From an uncultured Clostridium sp. (GTDB lineage: Bacteria; Bacillota; Clostridia; TANB77; CAG-508), in the NCBI GenBank assembly GCA_947061115.1, contig CAMSMU010000001.1, positions 3,361 to 67,360 of the forward strand: a stretch of 64,000 bases of DNA. The letters are read 5' to 3'. A program made the position numbers and the translations under genes. Shown in pieces: positions 53,409 to 64,000 of this stretch. The notes beneath the pieces were generated by a model. That model saw nothing but the letters and a program-made list of their open reading frames with translations. It had not been told where the DNA came from and did not search any database. Positions within the stretch are counted from its first letter, which is position 1. Each line of letters starts with the position of its first letter.

Positions 53409-55271
53409 TTAATAATTTTCAAAATAAGCATTTACCTTATATAAATTATATTTTTCTCTTGCAAGTGCTGTTATATATGCTTCTCGTACTTTAGCATTTG
53501 CAGTTTTACCTGCTTTTGTAGTTTCTATGTCATTTATGTTAGAAAATTGCGTTCCTTTGATAAGATTGTCTGAAGTGTATAATACGTCTTCTTTTCCTAT
53601 AATACATTCATATGCACCAGATCCAGAATGTGGATAATAATATAACATGTTTGTTTCTATACTATAATCTGGTTTTGTTATGTCATATGTTACTATTTGT
53701 TGCTCATAATCTATATTGCTATATCCCATTAAATTGTCTAAATTTTCATCATTTAATTTTTCGCATTTTGGATTATGATAATTTCTAGTTACATCTATAT
53801 CTCTGTTTCCTGTTTCTCTCTCTGCTAATATTATTGAGTCTCTTGAAATAAATTCTTTATTTTTACTATTTACTACTATTGAATAATTACTATAGTATTT
53901 ATAATTTCCTATAGGAAGTCCCTGCATAAATGTTACTATTGTTATATTGTTTGTTATTTTATACCAATCGTCTTCTGTCATTACTGGCAAAGCGAATTCG
54001 TATCCAGCATTTTGATGTATATTAAAGTTTGATATAATACTCATTAAATTTGATTCAATTGAGCTAATTATTACATCCATTCTGTGCTCGTTAAATACTG
54101 AATCTTCTGCTTCTGGATCATTTGATTCACTTATTTTAAATATATCATTTACATTATAAGCTGTACGAGCATGAATTGGTATAGTTTCTCCATTTGCAGT
54201 TTTTGTATAATTAAGTTGATTATTATAACTTTCTGTTTGTATTGTTAAGTTTTGTCCATTAAATATATTTATTACATATTCTGAAAATTCTTTTGATTCT
54301 TTATAATATTTAAATGCACTTCTATCTAAATAGTTATCTACAGTTATTTCATTATATGAGTTAAAGCCTAAAAATTGTGCAAAACTTTGTGCTTCATTTT
54401 CATTTAAATATACTCGCAAATTATTATTCATTCTAAATAATCGTATTCCATTATAAGAACTTAAACTTTCTAAATACGTATTTGAATTTGTTGTGTCTAA
54501 GTAATATTTTTGATTATTATAATATACATAATTGTAATATGCTACATCAGTTGATGCAAATGTTGTTCCCCTTGAAAGTTTTACTGTATCTATTGCTTCT
54601 ATGTATTCTCCCAATTTTTCTGGTTTTATCGTTACTCCATGTGATTGCAAAGTTCCTTGTGATTCATTAATATTTGTTACTGTGGCAGGATTTATAAAAT
54701 AACCTGATCTATTTACTATATTACCATTATTATCTTTTCCCATTATTGTTATATAGTTATCTAAAGTATAGTTTACTATTATATCAAAAGATGCCCCTCC
54801 TTTATATTCACATGAATAATATATATATGGCTTTATTGCATTACTTGTTTCTAGTTGATTTGAATTTTGTGTAGAATATACTTGTGTTCCTTCCTCTATT
54901 GATACTATATTTTGGTAATCTCCATATAAATAGTAACCATCATACATAGTAAATAACAGTGCTGGTATATATCCATTTAGATCTTGAATATTATAACCTG
55001 AAGATCCGAATGCAGTTGCTAAACTATTATAAAATGAATTTACTGCTGCAGATATATCTCTTATTTTTGAATCATTTATTGTTGAATAGGCATTACTTAA
55101 TGTATTCATTTGAAAAGCCTCAACAGCATCATTTGTAGAACTAAGTAAAATAGAATCATACTCAGATTGCTTTTTTTCTACTTGTATATTATTATTAACA
55201 TATTGTGATACTACTATAGAAATAGGTAATACTATAATTATAAATACTACTGCTAAATGCTGTATTTTCAT
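53409..55271 (-). CDS. large extracytoplasmic protein with N-terminal TM anchor; first gene-product downstream in the Tad-like locus
   Basis: 620 aa, N-terminal LAVVFIIIVLPISIVV, Asn/Tyr/Ser-rich ectodomain. Confidence 0.4.
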   Translation of the reverse strand: MKIQHLAVVFIIIVLPISIVVSQYVNNNIQVEKKQSEYDSILLSSTNDAVEAFQMNTLSNAYSTINDSKIRDISAAVNSFYNSLATAFGSSGYNIQDLNGYIPALLFTMYDGYYLYGDYQNIVSIEEGTQVYSTQNSNQLETSNAIKPYIYYSCEYKGGASFDIIVNYTLDNYITIMGKDNNGNIVNRSGYFINPATVTNINESQGTLQSHGVTIKPEKLGEYIEAIDTVKLSRGTTFASTDVAYYNYVYYNNQKYYLDTTNSNTYLESLSSYNGIRLFRMNNNLRVYLNENEAQSFAQFLGFNSYNEITVDNYLDRSAFKYYKESKEFSEYVINIFNGQNLTIQTESYNNQLNYTKTANGETIPIHARTAYNVNDIFKISESNDPEAEDSVFNEHRMDVIISSIESNLMSIISNFNIHQNAGYEFALPVMTEDDWYKITNNITIVTFMQGLPIGNYKYYSNYSIVVNSKNKEFISRDSIILAERETGNRDIDVTRNYHNPKCEKLNDENLDNLMGYSNIDYEQQIVTYDITKPDYSIETNMLYYYPHSGSGAYECIIGKEDVLYTSDNLIKGTQFSNINDIETTKAGKTANAKVREAYITALAREKYNLYKVNAYFENY

Positions 55272-55515
55272 TTGCTTTCCTTTCTTATTGTATTTTTTAT
55301 TATTCTAAATTATAAATATATATTTTTAAGGGCAAATTAAGGTGGGGACCAACAAGTTAAAAAGTATTAATTAAATTGTAGCCCTAGCGTTAAGCAATTT
55401 AATTTAGACTTTTTTATGTAGTTGGGGTGAGCCCTGAAAATATATATTTATAATTTAGAATACAAATAAAATAAACTTTAAAAATGGGAATAGATCTTTA
55501 TCTACTCCCTTTAAT

Positions 55516-56040
55516 TTATTTTCCGTTTACATTTACAAATCCGCTAGATCGTGCTGTTACAGTAGATGAATTGTTTCCTGTTACACGATAGATAAAATCT
55601 TTTAATATTGTAGATATTGTTCTATTTTGGTTTTTAACACTTACAGATACAAGATCTCCACGTTTTAAATACATTTCTCCATTATCTGAATTTACCTCAT
55701 CTAATATTTGTGATGTAAATTTACTATAATAATAGTTTTCTCCTACTTTTGTATATTCTGCTTCTGTTACTTTCTTTCCTGGATTATCATCTAGTACTTG
55801 CACTTCCATATCTACATCAAAGCTATTTCCTGTAGAACTTATTGTTTGTACAAAACTATCATAATTATCTTGTGTAATTTTTCCTGTAGATCTAATTCCA
55901 TCAACAAAGTCTGTTGTTGCAGCTTCTACTGCTTGTTTTGAAATACTGTCTACATTATCTGCTGTTGACATTAGTGGAAAAATGAACATTAGTATAGCTG
56001 CTAAAAATATTGCTACTACTGTTACTACTGTATCACTCAT
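55516..56040 (-). CDS. N-terminally anchored small protein (candidate minor pilin-like or accessory protein)
   Basis: MSDTVVTVVAIFLAAILMFIFPL at the extreme N-terminus, then a Ser/Thr-rich domain. Confidence 0.35.
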   Translation of the reverse strand: MSDTVVTVVAIFLAAILMFIFPLMSTADNVDSISKQAVEAATTDFVDGIRSTGKITQDNYDSFVQTISSTGNSFDVDMEVQVLDDNPGKKVTEAEYTKVGENYYYSKFTSQILDEVNSDNGEMYLKRGDLVSVSVKNQNRTISTILKDFIYRVTGNNSSTVTARSSGFVNVNGK

Positions 56041-63134: not shown

Positions 63135-63168
63135 AATTTAGCTCCTCTCTACGCTTAAATAATAAATA

Positions 63169-64000
63169 TTATATAAGTCCATTCATTTTCTCTTGCATTT
63201 TATATATTAAATAATCTTTTGTGCTATTTAATGTATTAACAAAGTACGTATCTTTGTTATCAAATTCTTTTAATGTATTCGCTTTTAAAATATAGTCAAC
63301 AATTCTTCCTTCTGAACATTCATCTGCAAACAAAATATTATATGGTACTTCCATTGGTATATTTTTTTCTCTTAATAATCTTGCGACATTTTTGCTAGAG
63401 AATTTTGAACCAGGATTATATTTTCCTAACATAAGTAATACATTATTTCTTCTATAAAATTCATTTTCAGACTTTAGCTTGAAAAAGTTGTTAATTGAAG
63501 TCATATTTTGCAATAAGTTTACTACTACTAAATCTGATATATTTAAAATTTTGTTTTTGCTTTCTCTAGGCATATTTTTACTCATATCTATCATGACTAT
63601 ATCGTAATCTTGATTCGCAGTATCTGCAATTTGTGAAAAATATTGTGATATTGATATATATTCTTTGTAATTCACTGTCTTTGGTGCTTGAAGAATGTCT
63701 AATCTGTCTTTTAGTACGGGTTTAGTATAGCTTCTGATTACTTCGCTTGATGCTCTGTTACTTGCAAAAGTTCTAACTAATCCTTCTAATCCATTTGATA
63801 CATCCATTACATTAGCTTTTGAAAACAAGCCAGTTTTTCTATTGTTTATATTCCAAAAGCAGTTTTCTAATGTTTTGTCCAAAAAGTCTGTTGAAAATAA
63901 TAATATTTTATAATTATGTTCAATAGCCATAGCAATTGCTGTGGCTGATATTGACATTGATTGTCCAGTTTCTTTTGAATCTTCACTTAAAAATGTTATT
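63169..64000 (-). CDS. TadZ/CpaE-like ParA/MinD-fold protein with degenerate Walker A; partial, N-terminus beyond window end
   Basis: The frame stays open to the window edge: ..SEDSKETGQSMSISATAIAMAIEHNYKILLFSTDF.., a deviant P-loop without the Lys. DIVMIDMS Walker B-like. Confidence 0.45.
   Translation of the reverse strand, partial: ITFLSEDSKETGQSMSISATAIAMAIEHNYKILLFSTDFLDKTLENCFWNINNRKTGLFSKANVMDVSNGLEGLVRTFASNRASSEVIRSYTKPVLKDRLDILQAPKTVNYKEYISISQYFSQIADTANQDYDIVMIDMSKNMPRESKNKILNISDLVVVNLLQNMTSINNFFKLKSENEFYRRNNVLLMLGKYNPGSKFSSKNVARLLREKNIPMEVPYNILFADECSEGRIVDYILKANTLKEFDNKDTYFVNTLNSTKDYLIYKMQEKMNGLI

Follow-up and report, generated by a model that had tools for sequence, protein, structure and literature searches.

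What kind of machine is encoded by the ten co-directional genes that lie next to spoIVB in the genome of an uncultured Clostridium sp. (contig CAMSMU010000001.1)? The genes fill positions 53409-64000 of a stretch of 64,000 nucleotides, hereafter called the window, and in an original prediction made from the sequence they were read as a Tad-like (type IVc) pilus locus with atypical parts, including a new family of pilin-like proteins that begin with the peptide MENAS. All ten open reading frames (ORFs) were found on the minus strand as described, but the first is incomplete, its frame being still open at position 63999. A CpaF-like ATPase and partners resembling ParA/MinD and SAF/CpaB were found, in agreement with the predicted machine. 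The best explanation, to which a probability of roughly 0.7 was given, is that the block is the chromosomal cluster for a Tad-like (type IVc-related) filament which is found almost throughout TANB77, an order of uncultured gut Clostridia.

The cluster is already known. Kim et al. (2024, Nat Commun 15:10726, PMC11680825) described a 'pilus gene cluster' of 10-14 genes that occurs once each in 122 of 129 species of this order, whose genomes carry unresolved Clostridia names at NCBI. Their proteins 927-931 are CpaB (358 amino acids), TadZ (231), CpaE (280), TadA/CpaF (640, one transmembrane helix) and a TadC/TadB fusion (693, eight transmembrane helices), followed by seven 'pilin-like' proteins with a single transmembrane helix (932-938; 165, 170, 143, 146, 237, 178 and 621 amino acids). 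In the current study the locus was extended upstream of the window edge with L001, a metagenomic contig encoding an identical ATPase. Window and contig together encode proteins of 311, 226, 279, 632, 691, 178, 186, 144, 157, 276, 174 and 620 amino acids, in the same order as 927-938. Because order, size and topology match one to one, the locus is a rediscovery of the published cluster with the same interpretation; the host lineage names and the functional reading agree as well, there is no structural difference, and the window represents another species' copy, in which the 620-residue protein corresponds to 'pilin 938'. The publication is silent on the MENASKAL start, the absent leader, the prepilin peptidase, the paralogy of 932, 933, 934, 935 and 936, the plasmid relatives and the linkage to spoIVB. 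One later review also touches on the subject.

A close relative of the ATPase is encoded in at least 582 species-level genomes, and the best 80 loci by ATPase relatedness (L004-L083) were used for comparison. All of these come from metagenome-assembled genomes of uncultured gut 'Clostridia/Clostridium sp.' from humans, rabbits, chickens and ruminants. The comparison of gene neighbourhoods across Clostridia, proposed at the outset, showed that one order is kept in the 80 species: cpaB, two parA-like genes, the ATPase, the platform, two MENAS genes, a paralogue beginning with MKK, one or two further MENAS copies, a last MENAS gene, and the genes for the 174- and 620-residue proteins. The SAF/CpaB-like gene was present in 78 of the 80 loci and that for the 620-residue protein in 64. 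Inspection beyond position 64000, also proposed at the outset, revealed on L001 a second ParA-like gene, the SAF-domain CpaB-like gene and a classical class-III prepilin-like gene (KKENG/ITLIS; here and below the slash marks a boundary of the cleavage-site type), the last of these in this genome only. In TANB77 the cluster is a single chromosomal copy in a context that runs from era, recO and HPF to spoIVB.

CpaF was the only relative of the ATPase among solved structures (8rkd, 8rjf and 9e24; E = 4e-10, residues 269-539). The top NCBIfam model was that of the TadA family (TIGR03819, E = 8e-10), close relatives have already been named 'CpaF' or 'TadA' by NCBI, and the Walker A motif reads GEQGCGKT. 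The Pfam profile T2SSE scored 24.0 bits, just below its cut-off of 24.9. Assignment to the SpoIIIAA or FtsK family would have spoken against a pilus-type motor; neither of these NCBIfam models matched the protein. The ATPase had also been described as membrane-anchored with an extra N-terminal domain of about 330 residues. The anchor is present, but the size of the extra domain was overstated, since the alignment with CpaF begins at residue 269, which faces residue 94 of CpaF in one construct and 173 in another; the real surplus over CpaF amounts to about 100-175 residues, of which the N-terminal membrane helix is a part. Between the 80 species the ATPase is 77-91% identical, whereas the other proteins of the cluster have median identities of 34-63%, indicating that the motor is conserved while the surface parts diverge fast.

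The 691-residue protein had been predicted to be TadB/TadC-like, and support for this came from its modelled fold, from profile alignments and from a split of the gene in some species. In the model, the predicted fold matches cytoplasmic helical domains of the GspF/PilC type, two per unit. When profiles were aligned with hhalign, the N- and C-terminal halves were collinear with the protein pairs encoded after the ATPase in further Tad-like plasmid loci of Firmicutes, namely one from Clostridium botulinum pCB111 (E = 5e-5 and 9e-5; this pair itself has no Pfam T2SSF match) and one from Thermoanaerobacterium (E = 0.045 and 0.003), whose first member is a bona fide Pfam T2SSF protein. No significant alignment was obtained with TadB and TadC of Rhizobium etli, and searches of PDB sequences, with the single sequence and with the family profile, returned noise only. 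In 13 of the 80 species (L017, L028, L030, L036, L039, L043, L047, L048, L058, L060, L069, L073 and L074) two ORFs of about 435 and 255 amino acids take the place of the platform gene, as may be expected for separate TadB-like and TadC-like halves, although these may also be sequencing frameshifts.

Profiles of the ParA-like proteins reached the ParA structure 3ea0 (E = 1.4e-4, with the profile of the 279-residue window protein) and the MinD structure 4v02 (E = 1.6e-3), a weak, specific link to this superfamily. The Walker A sites of both proteins are degenerate, and the lysine-less P-loop that had been noted in the window protein was confirmed, the position reading ETGQSMS. Among its orthologues in the related loci, 38 of 63 have GKT and 21 of 63 have GQS or GQT at this site; this polymorphism of the lysine between species suggests that nucleotide hydrolysis may be dispensable for the role of the second ParA-like protein. 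The third partner, the 311-residue protein on L001, contains a SAF domain (24.4 bits, cut-off 21).

The four MENAS proteins begin directly with MENAS(K/H)A followed by a hydrophobic helix, as first described, and codon and Shine-Dalgarno evidence confirmed Met1 as the start. In 206 MENAS genes of the related loci codons 2-8 vary synonymously (GAA/GAG 125:81; positions 4 and 7 use all four GCN codons) and GGAGG lies at -13 to -9, which argues that this methionine is the real start and that the constraint acts at the protein level. For MENAS paralogue 1 the start is the second ATG (59091), with GGAGGG 6 nucleotides upstream, the first ATG lying inside the gene's own Shine-Dalgarno sequence. An exact MENASKAL start, matched from residue 1, was found in 135 of the 145 top representatives (50%-identity clusters), and 4858 family members were detected when 1.8 billion cluster representatives were searched with a profile. 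The conservation of this motif is far beyond chance.

Alignment showed the four proteins to be mutually paralogous, and the description 'four tandem paralogs' was thus correct as to paralogy but not as to strict tandem order, as the MKK gene is interposed. This ORF of 159 amino acids probably starts at 57883 (MKKHY...), giving a protein of about 144 residues. It carries the MENAS core motif F..Y....V.G..V..L, and its orthologues start with MKK and share QF..Y....GT.V; judged by this common motif, it is a divergent fifth MENAS paralogue.

For the 157-residue MENAS protein 1265 close relatives were found, in which the first 30 residues are near-invariant and the remainder is variable; the gene is duplicated in some species. 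A near-invariant N-terminus joined to a varying head is also the pattern of type IV pilins. The AlphaFold2 model of this protein (predicted local distance difference test score, pLDDT, 79) has the predicted shape of a lollipop, with a helix at residues 2-37 and a small alpha/beta head, and nothing similar to the head was found in the PDB. No Pfam, NCBIfam or PDB entry matched the MENAS family, also when the family profile was run against the PDB, and a Pfam scan of 81 members gave no family in common. These searches placed the proteins in no known non-pilin family, and the family is unannotated as the original prediction held; the locus is not novel, the cluster having been published in 2024. 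The label 'pilin-like' is based on architecture, conservation pattern and gene neighbourhood, not on homology to known pilins. In the 174-residue protein a polar N-terminal stretch of seven residues, which includes an acidic one, precedes a hydrophobic helix; the protein was related only weakly to DUF4320 (E = 0.016, 3 of 29 members; hhalign E = 0.043).

From the homologies and folds of ATPase, platform, ParA-like and SAF proteins, from the conservation of the cluster and from the N-terminal-helix-plus-head architecture of the subunits, we infer an actual filament, a major subunit and accessory roles along the following lines. The membrane-anchored CpaF-family ATPase would act as a hexamer and drive the fused TadB/TadC-type platform. 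The two ParA/MinD-like proteins, whose P-loops are degenerate, probably serve to place the ATPase or act as a scaffold for it, and the single-pass CpaB-like SAF protein is probably an envelope-spanning collar. The platform would pull the N-terminally anchored subunits from the membrane and stack them into a filament via their conserved N-terminal helices. The 157-residue MENAS protein is the candidate major subunit, and the other MENAS paralogues, together with the 144-, 174- and 620-residue proteins, would be minor or tip subunits. The 620-residue protein may be the exposed subunit that host cells perceive.

Among the closest known systems are the Tad/Flp systems (Caulobacter Cpa, Aggregatibacter Tad), with which the cluster shares a CpaF-family ATPase, a platform of TadB/TadC fold, ParA-like TadZ/CpaE partners, a CpaB/RcpC-like SAF protein, and a gene order of accessory proteins, ATPase, platform and then subunits. 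It differs in having a membrane-anchored ATPase with only about 26% identity to canonical CpaF and a fused platform, in that the ParA-like proteins (226 and 279 amino acids, too short for it) lack the N-terminal receiver-like domain of TadZ, and in the size of the subunits, 146-276 amino acids as against 50-80 for Flp. The lack of a secretin is as expected for a single-membrane cell. In size the subunits resemble type IVa pilins and pseudopilins, as they do in having a polar N-terminus of 6-7 residues, a conserved hydrophobic helix of about 25 residues and a variable head, and the MENASKA/L boundary (Lys at -2, Ala at -1) resembles a short leader.

Several observations weigh against the assignment to a TANB77 type IV filament. 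The platform has no match to Pfam (including T2SSF, PF00482) or NCBIfam, and its model has a pLDDT of 66 and is based on a shallow alignment. As the original prediction had noted, no Flp prepilin, TadV peptidase or TadE box was seen in the window: no ORF of 50-80 amino acids with G/XXXXEY and no Flp or TadE Pfam match were found among the locus proteins, and a motif test, which was the only test applied for the A24 active site (G(G/A)(G/A)D(V)K-type) and was confined to these sequences, was negative in every frame of the window and of 83 loci, the 80 related loci being covered with 10 kb on either side. The polytopic window proteins that were scanned belong to ZIP, to a PAP2-like family or to no assigned family. 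The MENAS proteins lack the Gly -1, Phe +1 and Glu +5 of type IVa pilins and a significant N_methyl match; Ala occupies position 7 and Gly position 12 (+5). Moreover, the published work contains no microscopy, and no filament has yet been observed in this uncultured order. Finally, the window was assigned to TANB77 from matching architecture and record names rather than from GTDB classification.

How, then, would the subunits be processed? The seven subunits share no common boundary motif (MENASKA/L, MKKHY, MSDTVVT/V and MKIQHLA/V), and the first eight residues of the MENAS proteins are constrained as strongly as the helix, so that the 'leader' is as invariant as the part it would be removed from. 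Together with the negative A24 motif test, these features fit an assembly of the MENAS proteins and their locus partners as type IV filament subunits without prepilin-peptidase cleavage, in which the seven invariant N-terminal residues (Met1-Glu2...Lys6) would be retained on the mature subunit and their acidic residue would take over the function of Glu5. This proposal is put forward tentatively, as less likely than not. Cleavage is compatible with Ala7 and Leu8 being the most conserved boundary residues and with the Lys at -2; a leader of seven residues is of normal length for type IVa pilins, and Ala at -1 is partly tolerated by PilD. No characterised type IV filament system is known to do without an A24 peptidase and subunits with a common class III signal.

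Class-III prepilin-like starts (...G/ITLIALVVTIIVLLILAG) without Glu5 were also observed in proteins of 116-420 amino acids at 20554-21765, 37074-37667 and 44014-45276, all on the minus strand, and in the unrelated L001 gene at 1233-1583. Two of these proteins had a weak C-terminal match resembling FGE-sulfatase. These further class III proteins of the G/ITL... type, which the genome clearly encodes, imply that it probably also has a prepilin peptidase at another place, and perhaps another filament system of type IV; this, too, is compatible with cleavage of the subunits.

Thermobacillus, Cohnella, Paenibacillus, Cytobacillus, Sporosarcina, Alkalihalophilus, Lysinibacillus and Clostridium argentinense/botulinum carry the same module on large plasmids. 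With these plasmid copies the ATPase domain shares 41-68% identity, as against the low value for canonical CpaF given above. The module plasmids of Thermobacillus, Lysinibacillus, Paenibacillus and Clostridium are 140-180 kb in size, and most are typed as non-mobilizable. Three megaplasmids, pTHECO01 of Thermobacillus composti, pBsph of Lysinibacillus sphaericus and pRSJ17_1 of Clostridium argentinense, encode a SAF protein, two ParA-like proteins, an ATPase of about 620-637 amino acids (47-68% identical in the ATPase domain), a platform of 666-690 amino acids (26-37%) and N-terminally anchored subunits, among them a pilin-like one with a short leaderless start (MSTNASKAL, MESPVVKAI or MDSPVVKKI). 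In contrast to TANB77, these modules have one pilin-like gene instead of four or five, their last subunit, a homologue of the 620-residue protein, has 320-340 rather than about 540-620 amino acids, their hosts are soil Bacillales and Clostridium, and the core genes are all annotated as hypothetical.

On pTHECO01 (L084), pRSJ17_1 (L085) and pBsph (L086) an SLH or cell-wall-binding repeat protein comes after the module, together with a protein of 960-1200 amino acids that is annotated as DUF5704 in two of the three; genes with GGDEF and HD domains come next, also in two of the three. This neighbourhood hints that the plasmid modules may be under cyclic di-GMP control and have a cell-wall-anchored partner.

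The same machine might instead produce a short, piston-like pseudopilus for the secretion of proteins or the uptake of DNA through the thick wall, as in type II secretion or Com systems, and not a long pilus for adhesion. Each locus has five to seven distinct subunit genes with one obvious major, the subunits are of type IVa pilin or pseudopilin size (146-186 amino acids) and not of Flp size, the ATPase is tethered to the membrane, and the neighbours of the plasmid versions include secreted or cell-wall proteins of very large size (SLH or cell-wall-binding, DUF5704). However, the ATPase is nearest to CpaF and not to GspE or ComGA, no conserved ComEA/ComEC or secretion substrate genes accompany the chromosomal locus, and the fast-evolving head of the 157-residue protein suits an exposed polymer. 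A pseudopilus is therefore considered rather unlikely.

A conjugation pilus, for mating-pair formation or aggregation, that became fixed in the chromosome of TANB77 would account for the occurrence of the module on plasmids with ATPase domains of 47-68% identity, and on pTHECO01 genes for a type IV coupling protein and a relaxase-like protein are located close to the module. The TANB77 copy, however, is single, lies among the same housekeeping genes throughout and has neither a relaxase nor a coupling protein in its vicinity, most of the module plasmids are of the non-mobilizable type, and the GGDEF/HD genes that accompany the plasmid modules suit the control of adhesion or biofilm formation. 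This origin appears very improbable. The literature on pXO16 and Bacillus cereus conjugation was followed as a lead and no connection emerged, and a phage origin was discarded, as a PHROGs scan of all ten proteins gave no phage signal.

The spoIVB gene adjoins the locus as predicted (Table 1), and it lies directly downstream of the cluster in 57 of the 64 loci long enough to show it (median gap 138 nucleotides). In the window the gene for the 620-residue protein is separated from spoIVB by 93 nucleotides and is followed by a T-rich hairpin, which suggests that cluster and spoIVB are transcribed separately. A sporulation-linked apparatus, suggested by this near-constant position and by the resemblance of the platform model to SpoIIIAB, is scarcely credible, because SpoIIIAB is itself of GspF fold and EpsF reached the same Z score, the gene set (CpaB, two ParA-like proteins, a 632-residue CpaF-like ATPase and a 691-residue platform) differs from that of spoIIIA, no SpoIIIAA model matched, the hairpin and gap leave space for a promoter of spoIVB's own, and the plasmid versions are not beside sporulation genes. 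A known spoIIIA-type channel operon, whose recognition would have overturned the original prediction, was rejected on the same grounds, the GspF fold being the only feature in common.

The features of the locus are collected in Table 1. The GC content is 19-32% across the scanned 48-64 kb part of the window. An Rfam scan of 52000-64000 gave no match, and a scan for sigma-70 promoters found fewer sites than in shuffled controls.

Table 1. Features of the filament cluster in the window and on contig L001 ('published' refers to the protein numbers of PMC11680825).
Feature	Position	Strand	Remarks
Classical prepilin-like protein, 116 amino acids	L001:1233-1583		starts MIKKENG/ITLIS
SAF-domain CpaB-like protein, 311 amino acids	L001:1714-2649		N-terminal membrane helix; outside the window
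ParA-like protein 1, 226 amino acids	on L001, upstream of the window		
ParA/MinD-like ('CpaE/TadZ-like') protein 2	63169-64000, cut by window edge (ORF listed as 63169-63957+)	minus	279 amino acids at full length (L001:3360-4199); published 929
CpaF/TadA-family ATPase, 632 amino acids	61236-63134	minus	N-terminal membrane helix; published 930
Polytopic platform, 691 amino acids	59139-61214	minus	TadB/TadC-like fusion; published 931
MENAS paralogue 1, 178 amino acids from second ATG	58555-59091 (ORF to 59103)	minus	published 932
MENAS paralogue 2, 186 amino acids	57973-58533	minus	published 933
Divergent paralogue with MKK N-terminus, about 144 amino acids	57449-57883 (ORF to 57928, 159 amino acids)	minus	published 934, there 'signal peptide'
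MENAS paralogue 3, 157 amino acids	56911-57384	minus	probable major subunit; published 935
MENAS paralogue 4, 276 amino acids	56052-56882	minus	starts MENASHA; published 936
N-terminally anchored protein, 174 amino acids	55516-56040	minus	candidate minor subunit; published 937
Intergenic region	55272-55515	minus	terminator-like hairpin 55486-55509; nested inverted repeat 55293-55470
N-terminally anchored protein, 620 amino acids	53409-55271	minus	homologue of published 'pilin 938'
spoIVB	52278-53315		Peptidase_S55, 261.9 bits

The nested inverted repeat in the intergenic region has outer arms of 39 nucleotides, 100 nucleotides apart, and inner arms of 20 nucleotides, and folds far better than shuffled sequences (z = -7.7). 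It occurs once in the window and is absent from the related loci. As the gap is 244 nucleotides here and usually about 75, the repeat looks like a small palindromic, lineage-specific insertion similar to a miniature inverted-repeat transposable element. Outside the cluster, a minus-strand gene at 49087-50682 encodes a 531-residue protein with an Asn/Gln-rich N-terminal half composed of about five tandem repeats of some 23 residues (NVVDNNMNYQDQGNMGYQDPMAQ), one membrane helix and no Pfam match.

The importance of the cluster derives mainly from the published work, in which it is a signature of TANB77 and recombinant pilin 938, the homologue of the 620-residue protein, activated dendritic cells via TLR4 and improved anti-PD-1 efficacy in mice. 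Among gut genomes, that study described the cluster as exclusive to TANB77 and found few homologues outside the order for its proteins other than the ATPase. The plasmid modules show that 'exclusive to TANB77' holds for gut genomes and not for bacteria generally.

A large, unannotated family of subunits whose invariant N-terminus is apparently leaderless, encoded in a locus with no peptidase, prompts one to ask whether prepilin processing is indispensable for building type IV filaments. If the MENAS proteins are indeed assembled uncleaved, the type IV filament superfamily would gain its first branch that is independent of a prepilin peptidase, common to TANB77 chromosomes and Firmicute megaplasmids. 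Although TANB77 is uncultured, the machine is also carried on plasmids of the cultivable Lysinibacillus sphaericus C3-41, Thermobacillus composti KWC4, Paenibacillus and Clostridium argentinense, which makes the proposed filament open to genetic and structural work.

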